From an uncultured Candidatus Rokubacteria bacterium (GTDB taxonomy: Bacteria; Methylomirabilota; Methylomirabilia; Rokubacteriales; CSP1-6), in contig CAVYTA010000008.1 in assembly GCA_963771355.1 (NCBI GenBank), positions 75,700-139,699 of the forward strand: 64,000 bases of DNA, written 5' to 3'. How positions within the stretch are numbered: the first letter of the stretch is position 1; each line of letters opens with the position of its first letter. Both the position numbers and the translations under genes were made by a program. The notes beneath the pieces are model-generated. The model saw only the letters and a list, made by a program, of their open reading frames with translations, did no database searches and was not told the DNA's origin. Below are positions 19,616-32,494 of the stretch, one piece after another.

Positions 19616-21218
19616 TCACCGCTTGTTGAGGCGAAGGTCCTCGTAGGGTCCGGAATAGGCGTGGTTGGGAATCATGCCGAGCCCGTGCACCTCCAGCCGC
19701 GGTCCGACCCCGTTGAGAAAGGCGGGCTCGATGACCGGTCCGAACATGACCTGCTCGTGGATCACCTGCTGCATCTTGTGGAGGATCTGCTGGCGGACGC
19801 GCGGGTTCATCTCCTTCGACTGCTCACCGTAGAGCCCGTCCACCTCCGGATAGGTCCCGTAGACGTAGCGGCCCCCCGTCACCGCGTACTGCTCGAGCCG
19901 CGTGGGCGCGTTGCCGGGGGCGCCGCTGCCGCTGAAGATCACGCCCCGGAGCTTCTTGTCACCGTACTCCTGGAAGAAGGCCGCGCGCTCCATGGGCCGC
20001 AGGCGCAGCCGGATGCCTACCTGCTGGAGATAGTTCACCACCGGCTCCCCGATGGCCACCCCGTAGATGGTGTCGCCGGTGAGGTCGCCCGCGTCGAAGC
20101 CATTGGGGTAGCCGGCCTCGGCCAGGAGCGCCCGGGCGCGCTTGACGTCAAACGGATACGCCGGCGGCGTCCAGAAGTACTCCATGCCCTGCGGGATGAA
20201 GGAGTGCGCGAGCTTGGACAGCCCGAGGTAGACCGCGCCATTGATGCCGGCGCGATCGATGGCGAGGTTGGCGGCGAGCCGCACGCGCCGGTCGTGCCAG
20301 GGCGACTTCGGATCCCACTGCTCGGTGAAGAGGAGCCAGGTGGTGAAGGTGAAGTAGGTGGGCACCAGCCGGAGATTCGCCGTGCGCTTGACCTCCTCCG
20401 CCAGAGGCCCCGTGATGGAGTACGCCACGTCGACCTCGCCGCGCCTGAGCGCGGCCAGGCGGGTGGACTCGTCGGGGATCACGCGGAAGATGAGGGTCTT
20501 CACCGCGGGCGCCTTGCGCCAGTAGCCGTCGAAGGCCTCCACCGTCAGCTCCACGCCGGGCTTGAACGCCACGAACCGGTACGGGCCCGCGCCCACCGGG
20601 GCCTTCTTGAAGCCGTCCTCGCCCACCTGCTCCACGTACTTCTTCGGCACGATCCAGGCGGCGCCGGTGGCGGGGGTGGCGTAGAAGGTCATGAAGTCGG
20701 GCCAGGGCTGCTTGAGCACGAAGCGCACGCGCTGCGGGATCGAGCACCTCCACCCGCGCCACCTTGCCCTTGAGCAGCGCCGCGCTGGCGCCGCGATAGC
20801 GCTCGAACGAGAACTTCACATCCTCCGCCGTCACCGGCTCGCCGTGGTGGAACTTCGTCCCCTTGCGCAGCCGGAACTCGTAGGAGAGTCCGTCCTTGGA
20901 CGCGCTCCACGACTCGGCCAGGCTCGGCGTCATGGGATTGCCCGGCATGGGCTTGATGAGGGCATCGTGCAGCGCGTAGAGGACCATGAAGGGCGTGATG
21001 ATGCCGGACGTCTCGGCGGGGTCGAACCAAGTCGGCGCCAGCGTGACGTGGACGGCCCAGGTGGCCTGTCCCTCGGCGGCGCCGGCGGGAGGGACGGCCC
21101 CGGGGCCCGTGACGAAGGCGAGCGCCATCACGGCGAGGAGCAACGGGACGAGCATCGGCATCCGGTGGGACCGGCGGGCCGTGGAGGCCGTGGAGCGAAG
21201 CGGATGCCATCGGAGCAT
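19616..21218 (-). pseudogene. oppA: family-5 peptide/nickel ABC substrate-binding protein (OppA-like), disrupted by a 1-nt frameshift near 20736-20741
   Basis: N-terminal part (signal peptide ... VEVLDP) and C-terminal part (RVRFVLKQPWPDFMTFYATP...) are both good SBP_bac_5 sequence but lie in frames offset by one. The shift falls in a CCC/GGG homopolymer. Confidence 0.7.
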
Positions 21219-21330: not shown

Positions 21331-21386
21331 TCCCCGGGCCGGAGCACTCTCCCTCGGCCGGAGCAGTCAGCCCCCGGGCGAAGCCG

Positions 21387-23069
21387 TCAGCCGCGATGAC
21401 GCAGCACGGCACCGGGCCAGGCCCCGGTGTGGGCCCCATCCCGGTAGAGTACCTGCCCGTTGACGAGAGTGGCATGGATACCCCGGGCCTGGGCGACCAG
21501 TCGCTTGCCGCCACCGGGCAGGTCATGGACGTACTCCGGCGCCACGTCGTCCACCGTATCCGGGTCGAAGAGGACCAGGTCGGCCACCCGGCCGGGAGCG
21601 ATCACGCCCCGATCGGGAATGCCGAAGAACGTCGCCACCTCGGAGGTGAGCCGCCGCACCCCCTCCTCGAGCGACAGCGCCTGCCGCTCGCGCACCCACT
21701 TGCCGAGGAGATAGGTGGCGTAGCCCGCGTCGCAGAGCTGATCCACATGGGCCCCGCCGTCGGACAGTCCGATGAGGAAGCGCGGATCGGTGACCAGGGG
21801 CCGCACCCCCTCCGGGTCCTGATTCATCACCGGGAAGTCGAACAGTGTCTCCAGTCCATCAGCGAGCGCAATGTCCAGAATGGTGTCGGCGGGGTCCTGG
21901 CCGCGCGCCTCCGCGATCTCCGCCACGGATTTTCCGGATAGCGCCAGAGCTTCCGCGCCCGCCGCGTCGCGCACGGTGATGCGGCGCCACTGGCCGCGGA
22001 AGATGCGGCGCCGCTCCATCTCCTCCTTCCACTGGGTCCGGAAGCCCTCGCTCGCGTACAGCGCGCGCTGCTCCACCTCCGTGCGGTTGAACGCCTGGCC
22101 CCACGTGGCCATGGTGGCGAAGATGAACGGGTTCTTGAGCGTGAACTGGATGCGGAGCGGCCGGCAGGACACCTGCGGCACCGCGCGCTCGCGGCCCAGC
22201 AGCGGCGCCATGCGCTGCACGACCTCCTCGTGGGCGCCCGGCGGCCGGCCCGGCCGCGCGAAGACGGCGAGATAGGTCACGGGTCGCCGGCTCTCGTCCA
22301 CCAAGAGCTTCAGCGTCGCGTATTCGTCGTCGGTGACGCGGTCGGGCAGCGAGGTGATGGCGGCCTCGATGACGCCGCGCCCCCGCGCGCGCATGGCTCC
22401 GCAGAGCGCCCGCAGCTCGTCGGCGCTCGCCAGCCGGCAGGCGAGCGGGCGGCCCTGGTCGCCGACATGATTCTGGAGAATGGTGGTGGACAGCCCGAAG
22501 GCACCCGCGTCCAGCGCCTCGCCGAAGAGCCGGCCCAGCGTGGCCGTCTCCTCCGCCGTCGCCGCGCGGTCGACGGAGGCCTCGCCGAGCACGTAGTGGC
22601 GCAGCGGCGTGAGCGGCACCAGCGGCGCCACGTTGATGCCCAGCGGCCGGCGGCCCAGCGCGTCCATGTACTCGCCGAAGGACTCCCACTCCCAGCCGAT
22701 GCCGCGCCGCATGACGTCCAGCGGGATGGCCTCGACGTTGACGAGGTCGCCCATGAGGACCTCGCGCGCCTGGGGCCGGCAGGGGGCCACGCCCACCCCG
22801 CAATTGCCCATCACCACCGAGGTGATGCCATGCCACGATGAGCAGGTGAGGAGCGGGTCCCAGGCCACCTGCGCGTCGTAGTGGGTGTGCGGGTCGATGA
22901 AGCCGGGGGCCAGGACCAGGCCGCGCGCGTTCAGCCGCTCGCGCGCCGCCTCGCCGGGCCCGATCCCGACCGCGGTGATGCGCCCGCCGGAGACGGCGAT
23001 GCCCCCGCGGCGTGCGGGCGCGCCGGTGCCGTCGACGATGCGCGCGTTGTCGATCACGAGATCATGCAT
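21387..23069 (-). CDS. N-acyl-D-amino-acid deacylase (D-aminoacylase) family amidohydrolase
   Basis: MHDLVIDNARIVDGTGAP...GFIDPHTHYD metal-binding motif. Length 560 aa, typical of D-aminoacylases. Confidence 0.8.
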   Translation of the reverse strand: MHDLVIDNARIVDGTGAPARRGGIAVSGGRITAVGIGPGEAARERLNARGLVLAPGFIDPHTHYDAQVAWDPLLTCSSWHGITSVVMGNCGVGVAPCRPQAREVLMGDLVNVEAIPLDVMRRGIGWEWESFGEYMDALGRRPLGINVAPLVPLTPLRHYVLGEASVDRAATAEETATLGRLFGEALDAGAFGLSTTILQNHVGDQGRPLACRLASADELRALCGAMRARGRGVIEAAITSLPDRVTDDEYATLKLLVDESRRPVTYLAVFARPGRPPGAHEEVVQRMAPLLGRERAVPQVSCRPLRIQFTLKNPFIFATMATWGQAFNRTEVEQRALYASEGFRTQWKEEMERRRIFRGQWRRITVRDAAGAEALALSGKSVAEIAEARGQDPADTILDIALADGLETLFDFPVMNQDPEGVRPLVTDPRFLIGLSDGGAHVDQLCDAGYATYLLGKWVRERQALSLEEGVRRLTSEVATFFGIPDRGVIAPGRVADLVLFDPDTVDDVAPEYVHDLPGGGKRLVAQARGIHATLVNGQVLYRDGAHTGAWPGAVLRHRG

Positions 23070-24240
23070 TCGGCTGGCGCTCCTTGGCGCGGCCCGGGCT
23101 GGCCAGGCCGCGCACGTTCCAGATTCGCACCGGTCGGGCCAGACCCTTCAGGGCGAGCGGGCCGACGTCTTCCGCGTCGATCAGATCCTCCACGACCCCC
23201 GCGACCTTGGCCGAGATGAGGATTTGCCCGGCGCCGGCCTCGCCGCAGAGCCGCGCGGCCAGGTTGGTGACGCTGCCGATGGCGCCGTAGTCCCAGCGCC
23301 CCTCGAAGCCGATGGCGCCGATGGTGGCGTAGCCCTGGGAGACCCCCACGCCGAGCCCGAGGTCCCAGCCGCGCTTGCGCCAGCCCGCGCTGAGGCCGGC
23401 CACGACGTCGCGCATGGCCACCGCCATGCGGATCGCGCGCTGGGCCGGATCGGGAACCACCACGGGGTCGTTGAAGAAGACCATCATGCCGTCCCCGGTG
23501 AAGCGCTCGAGGGTGCCCTCGTGGGCGAGGACGAGCCGGCCCATCTCCGCGTGGTACTCGCGGAGCAGCTCCATGATCTCCTCGGGCTCGGCCGTCTCCG
23601 CGAACGCGGTGAAGCCCCGGAGGTCCAGGAACACCACCGTGACTTCGCGGCGGTGGGTCTTGAGCGGGTCGTCGGCGCCGCCGGCCACGATGAGCTCGGC
23701 GAGCTGGGGGGAGAAGAAGCGCTTGAGCCGCCCCAGGCGCTCGAGCTGTCCGACCTGCTCGGCCACGCGCTGCTCCAGCGTCTGGTTCATTTCCGCGAGC
23801 GCGCGGCGATGGCGCTGCTCCTCGTCGTGGAGCCGTTTCTTCTCCAGGCATGCGCCTACCCGCGCCTGCAGGAGCACGGGGTCGAAGGGCTTGCCGAGGT
23901 AATCGTCGGCGCCGAGCTGGATGCATCGCACCACGCTGTCCATCTCGTCCAGCGCGGAGATCATGAGCACGGGGACGTCGCGCCGCGCGGGATCGCCCTT
24001 GATCCGCTGGAGCACGGCATAGCCGTCCAGGTCCGGCATCATGACGTCGAGGAGGACGAGGTCGACGGGCGTCCGTGCGAGCACGTCGAGACCCGATTGC
24101 CCCCCCGCGGCGGTGAGCACCTCGTGGCCCTGACGGCGGAGGCGCCGGGCCAGCATGTCGCGGTTCTCCTCGCTGTCGTCCACCACCAGGATGACGCTGC
24201 GGCTCGACGGCGGCGCGGGCGCGGCCTCGGCCTCCGCGCT
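23062..24240 (-). CDS. response-regulator receiver domain fused to class III adenylate/guanylate cyclase (start uncertain)
   Basis: REC domain (ILVVDDSEENRDML...LLDVMMPDLDGY...) followed by CHD cyclase domain (VTVVFLDLRGFT...FTGDGMMVFF). The ORF is open upstream to 24702, but that upstream part is Arg-rich and out of character. Confidence 0.7.
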   Translation of the reverse strand, partial: SAEAEAAPAPPSSRSVILVVDDSEENRDMLARRLRRQGHEVLTAAGGQSGLDVLARTPVDLVLLDVMMPDLDGYAVLQRIKGDPARRDVPVLMISALDEMDSVVRCIQLGADDYLGKPFDPVLLQARVGACLEKKRLHDEEQRHRRALAEMNQTLEQRVAEQVGQLERLGRLKRFFSPQLAELIVAGGADDPLKTHRREVTVVFLDLRGFTAFAETAEPEEIMELLREYHAEMGRLVLAHEGTLERFTGDGMMVFFNDPVVVPDPAQRAIRMAVAMRDVVAGLSAGWRKRGWDLGLGVGVSQGYATIGAIGFEGRWDYGAIGSVTNLAARLCGEAGAGQILISAKVAGVVEDLIDAEDVGPLALKGLARPVRIWNVRGLASPGRAKERQPNA

Positions 24241-24379
24241 CGCCGTCCGGCCCGCGGGCGCCACGCCGCCGTGGCCGGAGCAGCTCGTGGAGGCGCTCGC
24301 CGGCCGCGCGGATTCGATCGAGGTCGGGCACCAGCGCGTCCGCGCCGGCCTCGGCGGCCTGCCGGAGGAGCGCGGCACG

Positions 24380-24644
24380 CCTCGGCGCGGACGCGCTCGA
24401 GGGGCGGGATGAGCGACCCGAGCGCGGCCGCGAGGTTGGGCGAGGCCGACGGCCCCTGCGCGAGCACCGTGTTCAGCAGGCCCAGCAGCTCGCGGGCATC
24501 CGCCCGGAGCGTCCCGAGCCCTGCCGCGAGGGTCGGACGGTCGCCCACCTCGAGCTCCTCGAGCAGCATCTCGGCGTAGCCGATGATGTGGTTCAGCGGC
24601 GTGCGCAGATCGTGGCGGAGCTGCGCGGCGGGCTCGATGCTCAC
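24380..24644 (-). CDS. HisKA (dimerisation/phosphoacceptor) domain fragment, H-box HDLRTPLN; either a stand-alone phosphotransfer protein or the frameshifted N-terminus of the downstream receiver-cyclase
   Basis: ATG at 24644 overlaps the CheY-like gene stop (ATGA). About 65 aa of clean HisKA sequence. The frame then has no stop and degrades into Arg-rich read-through of the REC domain, which is in another frame. Confidence 0.45.
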
Positions 24645-25018
24645 GCGCCGCCCGCCGGCCCGAGCAGGGCCTCGATCTTCTGGAGCAGGCGGGGAAGATC
24701 AACGGGCTTGGTGTCGAAGTCGTCGCAGCCTGCTGCCAGGGCCTTCTCCCGGTCGCCGGCCATGGCGTGCGCGGTGAGGGCGATCACGGGAATCGTCCGC
24801 GTCTCCGGCATGGCCTTCACCTGGCGGGTGGCTTCCCACCCGTCCATACCCGGCAGGCTCATGTCCATGAGGATGAGCGCCGGCGCCTCCGAGCGCGCCA
24901 TCGCCAGGCCCTGCTCGCCGTCGACGGCGATGGCCACCTCGTAGCCGCGCTTGACGAGGCGACGGGAGAGCATGTCGCGGTTCATCTCGTTGTCCTCGAC
25001 GAGCAGGATCTTGGCCAT
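24641..25018 (-). CDS. single-domain response regulator (CheY-like receiver), 125 aa
   Basis: [17 protein letters not shown]...LMDMSLPGMDGWE...TAHAMAGDREKALAAGCDDFDTKP. ATG overlaps the stop of the giant kinase gene (ATGA). Confidence 0.8.
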   Translation of the reverse strand: MAKILLVEDNEMNRDMLSRRLVKRGYEVAIAVDGEQGLAMARSEAPALILMDMSLPGMDGWEATRQVKAMPETRTIPVIALTAHAMAGDREKALAAGCDDFDTKPVDLPRLLQKIEALLGPAGGA

Positions 25019-28000
25019 CAGGCTTTCGGCCTTCGGCGCGCCACGCTGGCCGCCACCAGGTCGCGCACTTCGGCCAGCAGCTCGTCGCGGCCGTGGGTGC
25101 CCTTCTGGAGAATCTTCTGCACGTAGCCGTTGAGCCGCTCCCGGTCGTCGTGGGACAGGTCCTTGGCGGTGACGACGATGATGGGGATGGCCCGCCAGAG
25201 CTCGTGGCGGCGGAACTCGGCGACGAACTCGAAGCCGTCCATCTCCGGCATCATGAGGTCGAGGAGGACGACGCTGGGGGAGACATCGCGCAGGCGGTCG
25301 AGCGCCATCCGGCCGTTGGCCGCCTCCACCACCTCGAAGCCCTCGCTCTCGAGCATGCGCCGGAGCAGTGCGCGGGCGCCGGAGTCGTCGTCCACCACCA
25401 GGACGGGCCGGTCGCGCCGGTGCTGCTTCAGCACCGTCACCAGCCGTTCGCGATCGATCGGCTTGGTGAGGTAGTCGGAGGCGCCGAGGGCATAGCCCAG
25501 GTTCCGGTCGTCGACGATGGTCAGCATGACCACCGGGATGCCGGCCACGTCCGCGTCGGCCTTGAGGGCGGAGAGAACGGCCCAGCCGTCCATCCCCGGC
25601 ATCATGACGTCGAGGGTGATGGCGTCGGGCCGCAGCTCGCGGGCGCGGCGGAGCCCTTCCTCGCCGCCGGCGGCGGTGACGACGCGGAAGCCCTCCCGGG
25701 TTAGGAAACGCTGCATCAGGTCCCGCACCGCCGCCTCGTCGTCGATTACGAGCACGGTGCCGATGCCCGATGCCACGGGCTCGGCCGGCGCGGCGGGCGC
25801 GGCGGCTTCCCCGGCCGCCTCGGCGACCCGAGCGGGCAGCCGGATCGTGAAAGTGCTGCCGTGGTCCGCCTCGCTCTCGGCGGTGACGTCGCCACCCATC
25901 ATCCGGCAGAGCCGCCGGCTGAGCGCCAGGCCGAGGCCGGTGCCACCATACCGGCGCGAGGTGGCGGCATCGGCCTGGGTGAATGCCTCGAACAGCCTGG
26001 CGAGCTGCTCGGGCGTCATGCCAATGCCGGTGTCGCTGACCGCGAAGGCGAACCACTCCTGACCGTCCACCAAGTCGCGGCTTACCGCCAGCGTCACCGC
26101 CCCACGCTCGGTGAACTTGCAGGCGTTGCTCAGCAGATTGAACAGGGCCTGGCGCACCTTGGTCAGATCCGCGTGCATCGAGCCGATCGCGTCGGGGCAG
26201 CGCACCTCCAGGCGATTGTCGTTCCTGGCCGCCAGGGGCTGGATCACCGCCGCGATGTCCTGGACCAGGCGCGCCACGTCGAAGCTCTCGAGGTAGAGCT
26301 CCATCTTGCCGGCCTCGATCTTGGAGAGATCGAGCACGGCGTTGATGAGCTCCAGCAGGTGCTTGCCGGCCGCGTTGATCTTCTTGAGGTCGTCGGTGAA
26401 CTGCTCGGCCCCGAGATCGGCGGCGTCCTCCTGGAGCATCTCGCTGTAGCCGATGATGGCATTGAGCGGCGTACGCAGTTCGTGGGACATGTTGGCGAGG
26501 AACTCGGACTTGTGACGGTCGGCGGCCTCGAGCTGGCGGCTCTTGTCCCCGATCTCCCGGAAGAGGCGCGCGTTCTGGATGGCCACCGCCGACTGGGCGG
26601 CAAATGTCCTGAGCAGATCGATGACCTCCGAGGAGAACTCCCCGGGTGTCTTCTTGGAGACGGTGAGACCTCCGACCAGGTGATCCTCGCGCAACAGCGG
26701 AATGCCCAGGAGCGCCCGCGTTCCCGTCTGCAACAGGACATCTCGAAGGTGGCCGCTGTACGCCCCCGCCTCGGCAATGTCGGCAACCTGGACCGGCTCG
26801 AGCGTCACGGCCATGCGCCCGGCGACACCCTCGCCCCGTCGGATCGGCGCCCGCCGGGCCACGTCAACCACTTCCTCGGCGAGATTGTGGGTGGCACGGA
26901 ACAGGAGTTCCTCAGCCCGCTCGTCGTACTCGTAGACCGTGCACGAGTCGGTGCCGGCGAGCTGGTTGGCGCGGGAGACGATCGTGCTGAGCACGGTCTC
27001 GAGGTCGAGCGTCGAGCCGAGAGCCTGGCTGACCTCGCCCAGCGCCTTGAGCTCCTGGACCGACCGGGTGAGCTGGGCCGTGCGGGCTTGCAGCGCGTCG
27101 AGCAGCCGCGCGTTCTCGATGGCGATGGCCGCCTGGTCGGCGAAGGTTTCCATCAAGGCGATCTGATTGTCCATGAATGGCCGGACCTCGTGCCTGTGGA
27201 TCACGATGACCCCCAACAGCTCGTCCGCCCTGAGCATGGGGATCACCAGCACGGTCCGGTAAGGAGCAACCTGCTGCCCAGCGTAGGTGTACTCGGGATC
27301 GCTCCGGATATCGTGGATGTGGATGGTGCGCCGCTCAAGGGCCGCACGCCCGACGCCGCTCCCGCGTCCGGGCGCGATGGGATTCCGCTCGGTGAATGCT
27401 CTCAGCTCCGGGGAGACGTTGTGAGTGGCCACGACGCGCAGAACCTGACCGTCGAAGCGGAAGATCAATGCGCGTTCGGCCTCGCACAGCCTGATCGCGT
27501 TCTCGGCCAGCGTCTCGAAGACCGGCTGGAGATCGAAGGTGGACCGGCCGATCACCTTGAGCAGCTCGCTGGTCGCCGTCTGCTGCTCGAGCGCGACCCG
27601 CAGCTCGCCGTTTCGCTCCTCCAGTTCGGTGAACAGGCGGACGTTCTCGACGGCGATGACCGCCTGATCGGCAAAGGTCTGGAGGAGAGCAATCTGATTG
27701 TCGGAGAACGCCCGTGGCGTTTCCCATATGTGGACGTTTATTGTGCCGATGGGGGACCCGTCACGAAGCATCGGCACCGCCAGCACGCTGGCAAGGCCGG
27801 CACCTGCCACCGCACGCACGCTGTAGTCTCGATCCCCTCGGACGTCTGGAATATGAACCGGTCGGCCTGTCAGGATGGTCCGCCCGGACGCGCTTCCCAT
27901 GTGCGGCGCCATCGGGAATACGCTTCGCAGGGCCTCGGCCTGCTCAGGGGCCGTATTGTCGAGAGATTGCAGGTGCATTAATTCGCCGTCATACCTCACG

Positions 28001-31000
28001 ACCTGGGCGCTACCGGCCTCACACAGCCTGCGGGCATTGTGGGCGATCGTGTCGAAGACCGGCTGGACGTTGGTCGGCGAGCTCGAGATCACGCGGAGAA
28101 TCTCGCTCGTCGCCGTCTGCTGCTCGAGCGCCTCGGTGAGGTCTGCGTTCTTGGTCTGCAGCTCGGTGAGCAGCCGCGCATTCTCGATGGCGATGGCGGC
28201 CTGGTCGGCGAAGGTCTCCATCAGGGCGATGTGGCCGTCTGTGAACCGCCGGACCTCGTGCCGGTAGATGACGATCACTCCGAGCAGCTCCTCGGCTCTC
28301 AACATGGGGATCGCGAGCAACGTTCTGACAGGGTCCGCCACGTGCACCGCGTAGGTGACTTCCGAGTCGGCCAGCACGTCATGGATGTGGACTGTGCGCT
28401 TCTCGAGAGCAGCGCGAGCCGTGCCGCTATGGCGGCCGGGAGCAATAGGATTGCGCTCGATGAATGATTGCAACTCGGGGGAGACATTATAGAAGGCCGC
28501 GGCTCGCAGGAGCTGAGCGTCGAAACGGAAGATGACCGCCCGCTCGGCTTCGCACAGCCGGACCGCGTTCTCGGCCAGCGTCTCGAAGACCGGCTGGAGC
28601 TCGAACGTGGACCGCCCGATCACCTTGAGCAGCTCGCTGGTCGCCGTCTGTTGCTCGAGGGACACGCGGAGCTCGCTGTTGCGCCCCTCCAGCTCGGTGA
28701 ACAGGCGCACGTTCTCGATGGCGATCACCGCCTGGTCGGCGAAGGTCTGCAGCAGCCCGATCTGCTTGTCCGAGAATGGCGCCACGTGATCCCGGGCAAC
28801 GAGGATAGTCCCGATGGGCACGTTGTCGCGAAGCATCGGGACTGCGAGAGCGCTTCGATAGCCGGTCGTTGTTGCGATCGGAAGCGTATATTCGGGATCC
28901 TCAAGCACGTCTGGCACCTGGACGACGTTACGGGTCAAGATCGCCCGTCCGCTCACGCTCCCCCGGCTCGGAGGCAGCGGGTATGTCCGCCCCAGCGCAT
29001 CCAATCGCTCCGCGCTGAGGTTGTGGTGCGCCACGAGATGCATGAGCCGCCCGTCAAACTGAATGACGAGACCATTGACTGCCCCCGAGAGTTGCGTGGC
29101 GCTCGCGGCGATCGCTTCGAAGGTCGGGCGGACGTCGGTCGGGGAGCTGCTGATGACGCGCAGGATCTCGCTGGTCGCCGTCTGCTGCTCGAGCGCCTCG
29201 GTGAGGTCGGCGTTCTTGGCCTGGAGCTCGGTGAGCAGCCGCGCGTTCTCGATGGCGATGGCCGCCTGGTCGGCGAAGGTCTCCATCAGGGCGATCTGAC
29301 CGTCCGTGAAGGGCTGGACCTCGAGTCTGTAGATCGTGATCACGCCCAGGAGCTCATCCGCTCGGAGCATTGGTATCGCAAGCATGGTTCGAGTGGGATC
29401 AATCGTCTGCGCCCCGTAAGTGTATTCGGGATCGGCCTGGATGTCGTGAACGTGCGTGGTGCGCCGATCGAGTGCAGCGCGACCCGTGGTGCTTCCGCGT
29501 CCGAGGGGAATAGGATTCCTCTCGATGAAGCTCTTGAGATTGGGGGACACGTTGTGGGCGGTCACGACTCGCAAGACCTGACCGTCGAAGCGGAAGACCA
29601 AAGCTCGCTCGGCAGCGCACAACCGGACCGCGTTCTCGGCCAGGGTTTCGAAGACGGGCTGGAGATCGAAGGTGGAGCGGCCGATCACCTTGAGGAGCTC
29701 GCTCGTCGCGGTCTGCTGCTCGAGGGCGACGCGCAGCTCGGAGTTCCGCGCCTCCAGCTCGGTGAACAGGCGGACGTTCTCGATGGCGATGACGGCCTGG
29801 TCGGCGAAGGTCTTCAGCATCTCGATGTGGGCGGTAGCGAACCGTCCGGGTGCGCTGCGCTGGACAACGATGGTGCCGATCGGACTGCTATCCGCCCGGA
29901 GCATCGGCACGGCAAGCAGGCTTCGCCCGGCTGCCAGGTTGACCTGATATTCCGAGTCCTCCATCACGTCCGGGATTTCGGCGATGGCACACGTGAGAAT
30001 CGCCCGCCCCGAGGCTTGTGAGTGGCTCGGACGCATCGGGTACGCTCGCCGCAGACCTTCCAGCACGTCTGGCGTCACGTCGTGTGCCACGACGTGAAGC
30101 TGCTCGCCGTCGAACCGATGCAAGACGCCGAAGCTCGCCCCGCACAGCTGCACCGCGTTCCGGACGATGGCATCGAACACCGGCTGGACGTCGGTCGGGG
30201 AACTGCTGATGACCCGCAGGATCTCGCTCGTCGCTGTCTGCTGCTCCAGGGCCTCGGTGAGGTCGGCGTTCTTGGCCTGCAGCTCGGTGAGCAGCCGCGC
30301 GTTCTCGATGGCGATGGCGGCCTGGTCGGCGAAGGTCTCTAGCAGGGCGATCTGGCTGTCGGTGAACGGTCGGACCTCGTGTCTGTAGATCAAGATCACG
30401 CCCAGCAACTCGTCCGCCCTGAGCATGGGGACCGTGAGTATGGTTCGAAACGGGTCCACCTGCCGCGAGCCGTAGGTGTACTCGGGGTCGGTCTGGACAT
30501 CATGGATGTGGACGGTGCGCCGCTCGAGGGCGGCGCGCGCCGCGGCGCTGCTCCTTCCGGGCGCAATGGGATTCTGCTCGATGAAGGCTCTGATCTCGGC
30601 GGAAGCATTGTGAGTGGCTACAACGCGCAGGAGCTGACCGTCGAAGCGGAAGATGAACGATCGTTCTGAGTCGCACAGTCTCACCGCGTTCTCGGCCAGC
30701 GTCTCGAAGACCGGCTGGAGGTCGAAGGTGGAGCGCCCGATCACCTTGAGCAGCTCGCTGGTGGCCGTCTGCTGTTCGAGAGCGACGCGGAGCTCACTGT
30801 TGCGTGCCCCGAGCTCGGTGAAGAGGCGCACGTTCTCAATGGCGATGACCGCCTGATCGGCAAACGTCTTGAGCAGCTCGATCTGCTTGTCGCTGAAGGG
30901 GCGGACCTCCGTCCTGCGGATCAGAAGGCTGCCGATCGCCACCCCTTCGCGCACCAGAGGCGTCGCGAGTGTCGTGTGATGTCCTGCGGCTCTGGCCAGC

Positions 31001-32494
31001 GCCCGGCCTTCCGCGAACTCGGCTTCATCCGCCTCAGCGAGATTGTGAACATGGATCGGCTGCCGGTCGATGATCGCCCGGCCCATGACCGAGCCGCGGG
31101 TGAGCGGGAACGTCCGGCCCAAGACGCTGGCGATCGGTCCGTAATGGGCTGCGATCCGACCCGTCTGGCCTTCCACGAGCACGAGCACCGCATCGAAAGC
31201 CGCACATACTCGGGCTGCGTTCTCGGCGACGGTATCCAGCACGGGCTGAAGGTCAGTCGGTGAGCCCGCGATCACGCGCAGGATCTCGCTCGTCGCCGTC
31301 TGCTGCTCCAGGGCCTCGGTGAGGTCGGCGTTCTTGGCTTGGAGCTCGGTGAGCAGCCGCGCGTTCTCGATGGCGATGGCCGCCTGGTCGGCGAAGGTCT
31401 CCATGAGAGCGATCTGACCGTCGGTGAACGGCCGCACCACATGCCGGTAGATGAAGATCACTCCGAGCAGCTCATCCGCGCGCATTATGGGGATCCCGAG
31501 CGCGGTGCGAATGGGGATTGTGTCGGCCTGTGCGAGCCTGATAGGTGTGCTCTGGGTCGGCCTGGACATCCGGAATGTGGATCGTGCGTCGCTCGAGGGC
31601 GGCGCGCCCGGTGGCGCTGTTGCGCCCGGGGAAATGGGATTGCCCTCGAGGAACGCCCGGCGTCCGGCGGAGACATTGTGCGTGGCCACGAGACGGAGCA
31701 GCTGACCGTCGAAGCGGAAGATGGCGGCGCGTTCGGCCTCGCACAGCCTGACCGCATTCTCGGCCAGCGTGTCGAAGACCGGCTGGAGGTCGAAGGTGGA
31801 CCGCCCGATCACCTTGAGCAGCTCGCTGGTCGCCGTCTGCTGCTCGAGGGCGACGCGGAGCTCGCGGTTGCGTGCGTCCAGCTCGGTGAACAGGCGCACG
31901 TTCTCGATAGCGATCACGGCCTGGTCGGCGAAGGTCTGGAGCAGCGCAACCTGCCGGTCGGTGAAGGGCAGGGCCTCGGTGCGGCGGAGCTGGATCACGC
32001 CGATGGCAGCGCCATTCTTCAGCAAGGGAACACTCAGCAGCGTCCGGTGGCCGAACCGTTGCGCGTAGCGACTCCCCTCCGGGAACTCACCGATCTCGGC
32101 CTGCACGTCGGCAATGTGGATGGTCCGCGCCTCCAGCACACTCCGACCGGCGATGGTGCCTCGGGCGAGGGCCAGAGTGAACTCGCCGACCGGGTCTACG
32201 GCGATCGGCCCATGATGGGCGACGAGGAGGAGTCGGTCGCCTCGCGAGCCGGAAGATGGTGGAATCCTGGGCCTCGCAGAGGCGGCCCGCGCTGGCCGTC
32301 ACGGCGTCGAGTACCGGCTGGATGTCAATCGGCGAGCTGCTGATGATCCGGAGGATCTCGGCGGTGGCCGTCTGCTGCTCGAGGGCCTCGGCAAGCTTCG
32401 CCGCGAGCCCGTCGCTTCTCGCGCGCTCCTGCTCGAGCGCCTTGCGCAGCGCCTCGACTTCGAGGGCGAGATCAACCTTGGGCGCCGGCGCCAT
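25018..32494 (-). CDS. giant hybrid sensor histidine kinase: N-terminal coiled coil, about 12 tandem GAF domains, HisKA, HATPase_c, two receiver domains (~2,490 aa). A +1/-1 frameshift near 32245 splits it into ORFs 32087-32497 and 25018-32139
   Basis: GAF domains joined by conserved linkers alternating [34 protein letters not shown] and [33 protein letters not shown]. His[20 protein letters not shown], HATPase_c, then REC x2. The frame upstream of the listed start still encodes GAF sequence ([33 protein letters not shown]), and the 136-aa upstream ORF carries the same repeat unit. Confidence 0.8.
26500..32100. repeat. about five tandem copies of a ~1.07-kb DNA repeat (one di-GAF unit each) inside the giant kinase gene; linker segments about 90-95% identical over 100-200 nt
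   Basis: Near-identical plus-strand segments recur with 1,060-1,080 bp period at about 27541, 28601, 29681, 30721 and 31801 (type 1 linker) and about 28081, 29161, 30221 and 31281 (type 2 linker). Confidence 0.6.

Follow-up and report, generated by a model that had tools for sequence, protein, structure and literature searches.

A tandem HisKA hairpin, receiver and class III cyclase gene in a putative phosphorelay operon of an uncultured Candidatus Rokubacteria bacterium

The locus described here lies on the minus strand of a 64-kb stretch of DNA from an uncultured Candidatus Rokubacteria bacterium (contig CAVYTA010000008.1; hereafter the window, whose coordinates are used throughout), and its central element is a gene whose product links two tandem HisKA hairpins to a receiver (REC) and a class III nucleotidyl cyclase. 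The list of open reading frames (ORFs), together with a three-frame translation, gives five minus-strand genes in a row, namely a kinase, a receiver, a first reading frame (A), a second one (B) and an amidohydrolase. The gene of the giant soluble hybrid histidine kinase (25018..32494) joins that of a CheY-like single-domain receiver of 125 amino acids (24641..25018; Response_reg, 93.6 bits) through TGATG, with a 1-nucleotide overlap at 25018. The CheY-like gene overlaps in turn by 4 nucleotides (GTGA) with the cyclase gene (23062..24644), which starts with GTG at 24644, encodes 526 amino acids once two bases are removed, and overlaps at its stop by 8 nucleotides (ATGCATGA) with the amidohydrolase gene. 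A preliminary description of this DNA had placed an ATGA overlap at every junction, wrongly in view of the three motifs just given; its coordinates and domain calls for the CheY-like gene (24641-25018), the HisKA segment (from 24644) and the REC-cyclase (to 23062) agree with the Pfam results.

The coding signal had also been said to pass through three frames, in the order A, C and B. This pattern is indeed present, and the peptides quoted in its support are exact translations of those frames. Judged from the GC content at the first, second and third codon positions (GC1, GC2 and GC3), frame A is used down to about 24380, frame C between about 24380 and 24275 (GC1 0.97, GC2 0.57 and GC3 0.90) and frame B below. 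The frame A segment (24378..24644) contains the first HisKA hairpin (helices 5-32 and 37-62) with the H-box LRHDLRTPLNH, in which the codon of His11 occupies 24612-24614, followed by the beginning of helix 3. The frame C segment (24275..24376) comprises the rest of helix 3 together with helix 4 (DLDRIRAAGERLHELL), which belong to a degenerate second HisKA hairpin devoid of the His residue. Frame B, which ends at 23062, contains the receiver domain (residues 150-262, 23857..24195; Response_reg, PF00072, 97 bits), with the phospho-acceptor Asp199 encoded at 24046-24048, and the catalytic domain of a class III nucleotidyl cyclase (residues 331-500, 23143..23652; Guanylate_cyc, 68 bits). The frame A product, read from the GTG at 24644, scores 37.6 bits against the Pfam HisKA profile PF00512 for a gathering score of 26.9. 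The profile scan proposed in the preliminary description thus places HisKA above the Pfam threshold, matches Guanylate_cyc and leaves the histidine phosphotransfer domain HPt (PF01627) without a match in the three operon proteins (cyclase protein at E<=1, kinase at E<=0.001).

Relatives were sought in three protein searches, the best 120 matches of each being examined; the first search, with the conceptual join of the A, C and B peptides as the query, returned several thousand matches. The examined matches are single ORFs of 500-530 amino acids (484-531 in the first search), and HisKA, REC and Guanylate_cyc occur in nearly all of them; the HisKA-REC-cyclase architecture forms one ORF of 500-530 amino acids in over 350 clusters of related proteins and in about 20 genomes. 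The relative P0001, 98% identical and exactly 526 amino acids long, equals the A+C+B concatenation and runs continuously (ERVRAEAAALLRQAAEAGGDALVPDLDRIRAAGERLHELLRHGGV) across both junctions. At the DNA level, contigs L001 and L002 differ from the window by 29 substitutions and exactly two gaps in 1583 nucleotides, and in both cases it is the window that has the extra base, namely T at 24377 and, at 24273/4, one C of the CC at 24273..24274 (minus-strand bases). Removal of both bases yields an unbroken ORF of 526 codons, whose divergence from L001 is mostly synonymous (ratio of nonsynonymous to synonymous polymorphism, pN/pS, 0.16). The region 23062-24644 is one HisKA-REC-cyclase gene. Two possibilities had been left side by side, a single protein broken by two indels or a separate HisKA gene followed by a REC-cyclase; the single-ORF orthologues and the read-through of P0001 decide for the former, and no split locus was found for the latter. 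The orthologue alignment that had been proposed as a check finds HisKA and REC-cyclase in one ORF in every orthologue found. HATPase_c gave no match at E<=1 in frames A, B and C or in P0001, and none occurs among the precomputed domains of the listed relatives; since the same chain has no such ATPase domain, the cyclase protein cannot be regarded as a functional histidine kinase.

The origin of the extra bases was approached through multiple alignments that comprised, for each insertion site, seven to ten related contigs. Between 20.7 and 32.3 kb, five uncompensated single-base differences distinguish the window from related contigs, all of them insertions in the window (20734, 21371, 24274, 24377 and 32243), and four of the five break three otherwise conserved genes (SBP_bac_5, cyclase and kinase). 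At 24377, other contigs carry either G or T at a single position, but the sequence of the window is GGCG-TG-CCGCG, with the two alleles next to each other. At 24274, the CCGGCC of the window (CTCCGGCCAC) corresponds to CGGCC or CCGGC elsewhere, and appears as a hybrid of CTC-GGCCAC and CTCCGG-CAC. The insertion at 20734 breaks the frame of the SBP_bac_5 solute-binding gene (about 19619-21200, minus strand); here the window and contig L083 read CCCGCAG and the relatives CCC-GAG, CCC-CAG or CCG-CTG, i.e., G or C in place of the GC of the window. The extra G at 32243, in the kinase gene, falls within a codon that varies between strains, relatives reading CTC-TCA-GGC or CTC-GCC-GGC. At 21371, just downstream of the amidohydrolase stop, an intergenic run of five G is four G long in four related contigs, which amounts to a difference in homopolymer length. 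Where an insertion restores the two alleles of a polymorphic site, the expected source is the consensus of reads from mixed strains, and not mutation.

Short-read contigs of close relatives (L001, L002, L085, L086 and L090) are intact, and copies of the GC-rich cyclase gene with a broken frame are common in long contigs named contig_NNNN. In two of the latter, L083 and L084, the genes in question are frameshifted far more often; L083, where both the kinase and the cyclase are fragmented, displays 92 gap positions over 20 kb. Among long public contigs, L018, L019, L083 and L084 carry frameshifts in this gene family, which for example turn the H-box out of frame into TTSSASARCCS.

The broken frames are thus very probably an assembly artefact, of the kind produced by a consensus over mixed strains, and the gene is probably intact in the organism; judged from the alignments, a pseudogene or a recoding event is far less likely than such an error. 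A real and very recent pseudogene, with true frameshifts in the cyclase, kinase and SBP genes of a signalling operon that would be dead or dying, appears improbable. It is true that the window sequence as given is broken, that the breaks are grouped in one 12-kb region instead of being spread window-wide, and that insertions 24274 and 20734 are shared with L083, an independent contig from another sample. However, every event is an insertion, the inserted bases fall on strain-variable sites, both alleles being reproduced at 24377 and 20734, no break is seen in the short-read contigs of close relatives, the pN/pS of 0.16 is accompanied by no other damage, and the 24-mers bearing insertions 24377 and 24274 are absent from 241 M metagenome contigs of the Joint Genome Institute (JGI). 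Two of these points also weigh against an artefact: the recurrence in L083, which could stem from a systematic error common to both contigs or from a true mutation of the lineage, and the confinement of the breaks, since a composition-based frame test over the whole window detected no broken gene outside 20.7-32.3 kb. A uniform long-read error rate over the window was rejected on account of this confinement, and the errors would instead be clustered near the highly repetitive kinase gene, whose repetitiveness is a likely reason for the poor assembly of the region. The intact single gene also has to be set against two readings that accept the frames as they stand. A free-standing phosphotransferase of the Spo0B/ChpT kind followed by an independent REC-cyclase is extremely improbable, even though frame B is open from 24702, which makes an independent start conceivable, and REC-cyclases without a HisKA module occur elsewhere. 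Frame A has its first stop at 24039, so that a stand-alone HisKA protein would extend 150 nucleotides into the receiver as Arg-rich nonsense; moreover, the frame C peptide is kept in all orthologues inside the same ORF, and no orthologous locus is split, other frame-shifted long contigs excepted. The probability that programmed ribosomal frameshifting or another recoding process joins the three frames is practically negligible: the coding signal is continuous across them, with no stops between, but two successive +1 events would be required, and programmed frameshifting was rejected because the orthologues keep a single frame across the two sites and neither GGCGTGCC nor CTCCGGCC offers a slippery motif or heptamer. 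Since a consensus artefact is the most likely origin of the indels, the unresolved frames would carry no biology and should not be taken for such in annotation, where the cyclase gene, the giant kinase and the neighbouring transporter gene merit either repair or a flag for consensus error at strain-variable sites.

The N-terminal 125 residues of the repaired protein consist of two tandem HisKA hairpins, of which the first alone keeps the invariant His. One and the same HisKA segment of the operon kinase is matched in BLASTP by residues 4-61 (E 8e-12) and by residues 68-122 (E 2e-5), and a profile-profile comparison of the two hairpins with hhalign aligns 54 columns without any gap (E 2.3e-4). 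Throughout an alignment of 114 sequences, the second hairpin is devoid of the His residue and has Ala, Gly, Ser or a similar residue at the aligned position. In a profile search for relatives extended to 1.84 billion representatives, two to six H-box hairpins were found to precede the receiver in P0361, P0363, P0370, P0372, P0373 and P0362; P0373 and P0372 keep the full H-box in both hairpins, and P0361 contains an array of up to six. Depending on the relative, the hairpins and receiver are followed by a cyclase or by a complete HisKA-HATPase core. The internal repeat and the existence of these multi-hairpin relatives indicate that the module is a tandem cassette of the dimerization and histidine phosphotransfer (DHp) type paired with a receiver, and not a truncated kinase.

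Residues 1-128, modelled alone with AlphaFold2, gave a predicted local distance difference test (pLDDT) of 89 and a predicted template modelling score (pTM) of 0.84. Structurally, this model is matched best by four-helix bundles made of a single chain, among them a re-engineered single-chain ROP, with template modelling (TM) scores of 0.72-0.81; Foldseek returned no significant match for the N-terminal model, only generic four-helix bundles, which support the fold class and not homology. In the monomer model, the bundle is closed by the degenerate second hairpin of the same chain, and the module may accordingly form an intramolecular four-helix bundle. Against this it must be considered that AlphaFold2 packs the helices of a monomer intramolecularly by default, and that a domain-swapped or a conventional dimer would be an alternative. 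A broader proposal is therefore put forward tentatively, as somewhat short of probable: the duplicated hairpin would act as a single-chain DHp, a monomeric bundle replacing HPt as the His station of a phosphorelay, within a portable cassette of two hairpins and a REC that would precede cyclases or kinase cores in several phyla, accompanied by a dedicated CheY, and the cyclase would perhaps make a non-standard nucleotide. If true, it would represent an undescribed evolutionary route by which monomeric phosphotransfer domains arose from dimeric kinase cores.

The 114 aligned sequences, down to 47% identity, originate from Rokubacteria/Methylomirabilota, Chloroflexi/Dehalococcoidia, Actinobacteria, Steroidobacteraceae and Burkholderiales. 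Within the N-terminal module, His11, Thr15, Asn18, Gly22, Tyr23 and Asp107 are invariant; in the H-box, His11, Glu or Asp at position 12 and Thr15 are each found in 114/114, so that the HisKA acceptor motif is present. A second histidine, His19 (codon 24588-24590, in LNHIIGY, eight residues past His11), occurs in 113/114, and the HisKA domain of the partner kinase has Ala there. The receiver pocket is similarly conserved, with Asp155, Asp156, Asp199 and Ser229 invariant and Lys251 in 111/114, as is the cyclase, whose metal-binding Asp340 and Asp384 and transition-state residues Asn460 and Arg464 are all invariant. The full AlphaFold2 model (pLDDT 89) consists of four N-terminal helices (5-32, 37-62, 71-98 and 105-123), a disordered linker, the receiver, one long helix and the cyclase domain, the connection between receiver and cyclase being made by this helix (residues 255-307).

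The profile, the fold, the pair of metal-binding Asp and the Asn/Arg residues all identify a class III cyclase (PF00211). The nearest solved structure is that of CyaB from Pseudomonas aeruginosa (3r5g; E 4e-38, 40% identity, Foldseek TM 0.90), which possesses the same metal-binding Asp pair and Asn/Arg. CyaB is not known to be regulated by a receiver, and its regulatory domains differ from those of the window protein. In contrast to CyaB, which has Lys and Thr at the specificity positions, the family exhibits Arg (64 sequences), Gln (46), Tyr or Thr at the first of these and Gly (64), Thr (31), Ala (17) or Ser at the second; in the window protein they correspond to Arg380 (about 23503-23505) and Gly453 (about 23284-23286), numbered after the repaired protein. 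None of the canonical specificity pairs (Lys/Asp, Lys/Thr and Glu/Cys-Ser-Gly) is found among the 114 sequences. Owing to these non-canonical residues, the product nucleotide cannot be called from the sequence, and the wording of the preliminary description, a cyclic nucleoside monophosphate (cNMP), was suitably cautious; a cyclase with Arg/Gln-Gly at these positions might make a non-standard nucleotide. No NCBIfam model covers the architecture, for which only sub-threshold receiver matches were obtained, and thousands of copies are labelled 'response regulator' or 'adenylate cyclase' in the databases.

The kinase upstream comprises at least 11 GAF domains, a HisKA, a HATPase_c and two receivers, as identified with Pfam on an ORF of 2373 amino acids. 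Comparison with the intact 3026-amino acid orthologue on contig L087 set both its N-terminus and its repair: the true start is the ATG at 32494, the extra G at 32243 shifts the first 84 codons, and its removal gives an ORF of 2491 amino acids. Parts of the gene match one another at 78-84% nucleotide identity, and the orthologues (on contigs including L086, L087 and L088) measure 2314, 2449, 2491 and 3026 amino acids; taken together, the internal repeats and the differences in length suggest that the copy number of the GAF repeat varies between strains. The CheY-like protein is found in identical form on at least 22 public contigs.

The organization of these genes extends beyond Rokubacteria. 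In loci containing the hairpin module, a CheY-like gene (68-90% identical to that of the window) lies directly upstream, preceded by a multi-GAF kinase that is usually hybrid. The pairing of CheY with DHp-REC-cyclase occurs in Rokubacteria, Gamma- and Betaproteobacteria, Dehalococcoidia (L091), Actinobacteria (L092) and Steroidobacteraceae (L093). REC-cyclases devoid of the hairpin module are mostly found directly behind an ordinary kinase, about ten of them with some other receiver-like sequence in between, and a closely related CheY gene is absent from the examined loci of this type.

The explanation that best accounts for the whole, and which is considered likely, is that of one gene with artefactual insertions whose product would terminate a relay of the Spo0F/Spo0B/Spo0A type acting on a cyclase. 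According to this scheme, the multi-GAF hybrid kinase would autophosphorylate and its phosphoryl group would pass from the kinase His to the Asp of the co-transcribed CheY-like protein, or to that of the receivers belonging to the kinase itself. His11 of the hairpin module would then accept it from that Asp, in the manner of Spo0B, ChpT or HPt, and hand it over to the receiver at Asp199, either within its own chain or in the partner protomer, and the phosphorylated receiver would alter the output of the dimeric cyclase via the connecting helix. We infer the direction and the order of these His-Asp-His-Asp steps from residues and gene order; the invariance of His11, the lack of an HPt match in the operon and the conservation across phyla of the CheY/DHp-REC-cyclase pair strengthen the case. 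Some points nevertheless weigh on the other side: the literature searched contains no phosphotransfer data for any family member, the kinase itself contains two receivers, hence more than one candidate Asp donor for His11, and H-E-x-x-T is also the phosphatase motif of HisKA domains, so that the module could act as a phosphatase. It is rather unlikely, but deserves consideration, that the module of an intact gene takes no part in a relay and serves the cyclase, an obligate dimer, as a scaffold or a means of dimerization, and/or acts as a phosphatase resetting the receiver or CheY. The H-E/D-x-x-T motif is invariant in the family, and a HisKA that has lost its His is essential, through dimerization, for the cyclase activity of Dictyostelium ACR (PMC3009899). 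Neither dimerization nor HisKA phosphatase chemistry requires a His, however, whereas His11 is kept in 114/114 and His19 in 113/114, and this invariance argues for phosphotransfer; in addition, the predicted model is a closed single-chain bundle and not an open dimerization hairpin, and the strictly co-occurring CheY gene is more easily explained as a Spo0F-like donor. Phosphotransfer could also coexist with phosphatase or dimerization activities.

Both receiver-regulated class III cyclases, such as CyaC, and phosphotransferases derived from DHp domains, such as Spo0B, ChpT and PhyT, are already known. In Spo0F-Spo0B-Spo0A of Bacillus and CckA-ChpT-CtrA of Caulobacter, the phosphoryl group travels from a kinase His to the Asp of a single-domain or hybrid receiver, then to the His of a DHp-type four-helix bundle and finally to the Asp of an output receiver. 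Spo0B and ChpT are free-standing homodimers that retain a degenerate domain resembling the catalytic and ATP-binding (CA) one. Like them, the proposed phosphotransfer module of the window has its origin in a kinase DHp and not in HPt. Unlike them, it is fused to the terminal regulator, is devoid of any CA remnant, is predicted to close its bundle within the same chain and leads to a cyclase instead of a DNA-binding output. With a fused module whose residues 62-125 form a second helical hairpin and not an α/β domain, the protein falls outside the Spo0B/ChpT type, both members of which are discussed in PMC9981736. A shared logic links the window system to the PhyT/MrrA general stress relay of Alphaproteobacteria, in which a single-domain receiver takes its phosphoryl group from kinases and the output regulator obtains it by way of a kinase-like protein that is itself inactive as a kinase (PMC5898713, PMC5964349); PhyT, however, is of the HWE/HisKA_2 type and a separate protein, and its output is partner switching and not nucleotide cyclization.

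Among receiver-linked cyclases, CyaC from the cyanobacteria Spirulina/Anabaena (REC-GAF-GAF-HisKA-HATPase-REC-class IIIb cyclase) resembles the window system in its GAF sensing, its HisKA His and the receiver that immediately precedes its class III cyclase, and its catalytic domain (1wc1) is among the best structural matches of the cyclase domain described here. In the summary given in PMC3009899, the CyaC cyclase is described as activated when the adjoining receiver is phosphorylated. However, CyaC unites kinase, receiver and cyclase in one chain, with a one-step His-to-Asp transfer, whereas in the window the ATPase resides on a separate giant hybrid kinase, a free CheY is interposed, and the HisKA adjacent to the receiver is duplicated and has no ATPase. 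Dictyostelium ACR similarly has a HisKA N-terminal to its receiver(s) and class III cyclase, needed there for cyclase function, but this HisKA serves as a dimerizer only and the receivers are dispensable (PMC3009899), whereas in the window family the His and the catalytic residues of the receiver are invariant.

Literature searches on HisKA-REC-cyclase, HisKA-only phosphotransferases and tandem HisKA/DHp yielded no description of the family, nor of a duplicated, ATPase-less HisKA hairpin fused to a terminal receiver-cyclase. The locus belongs to a large uncharacterized family distributed over several phyla, in which the synthesis of cyclic nucleotides is apparently driven by a four-step phosphorelay. 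If true, the hairpin module would represent a third solution for the second His step, besides HPt domains and Spo0B/ChpT dimers, and the operon a compact system of three proteins in which to study the phosphorelay-fed synthesis of second messengers in Rokubacteria and similar soil bacteria. The underlying family is a reasonable target for biochemistry.

The amidohydrolase gene (Amidohydro_3, 21387-23069), the last of the row, follows the cyclase gene only in the closest relatives (L001, L002 and L083-L085) and not in other phyla, and is thus probably not a member of the signalling module.

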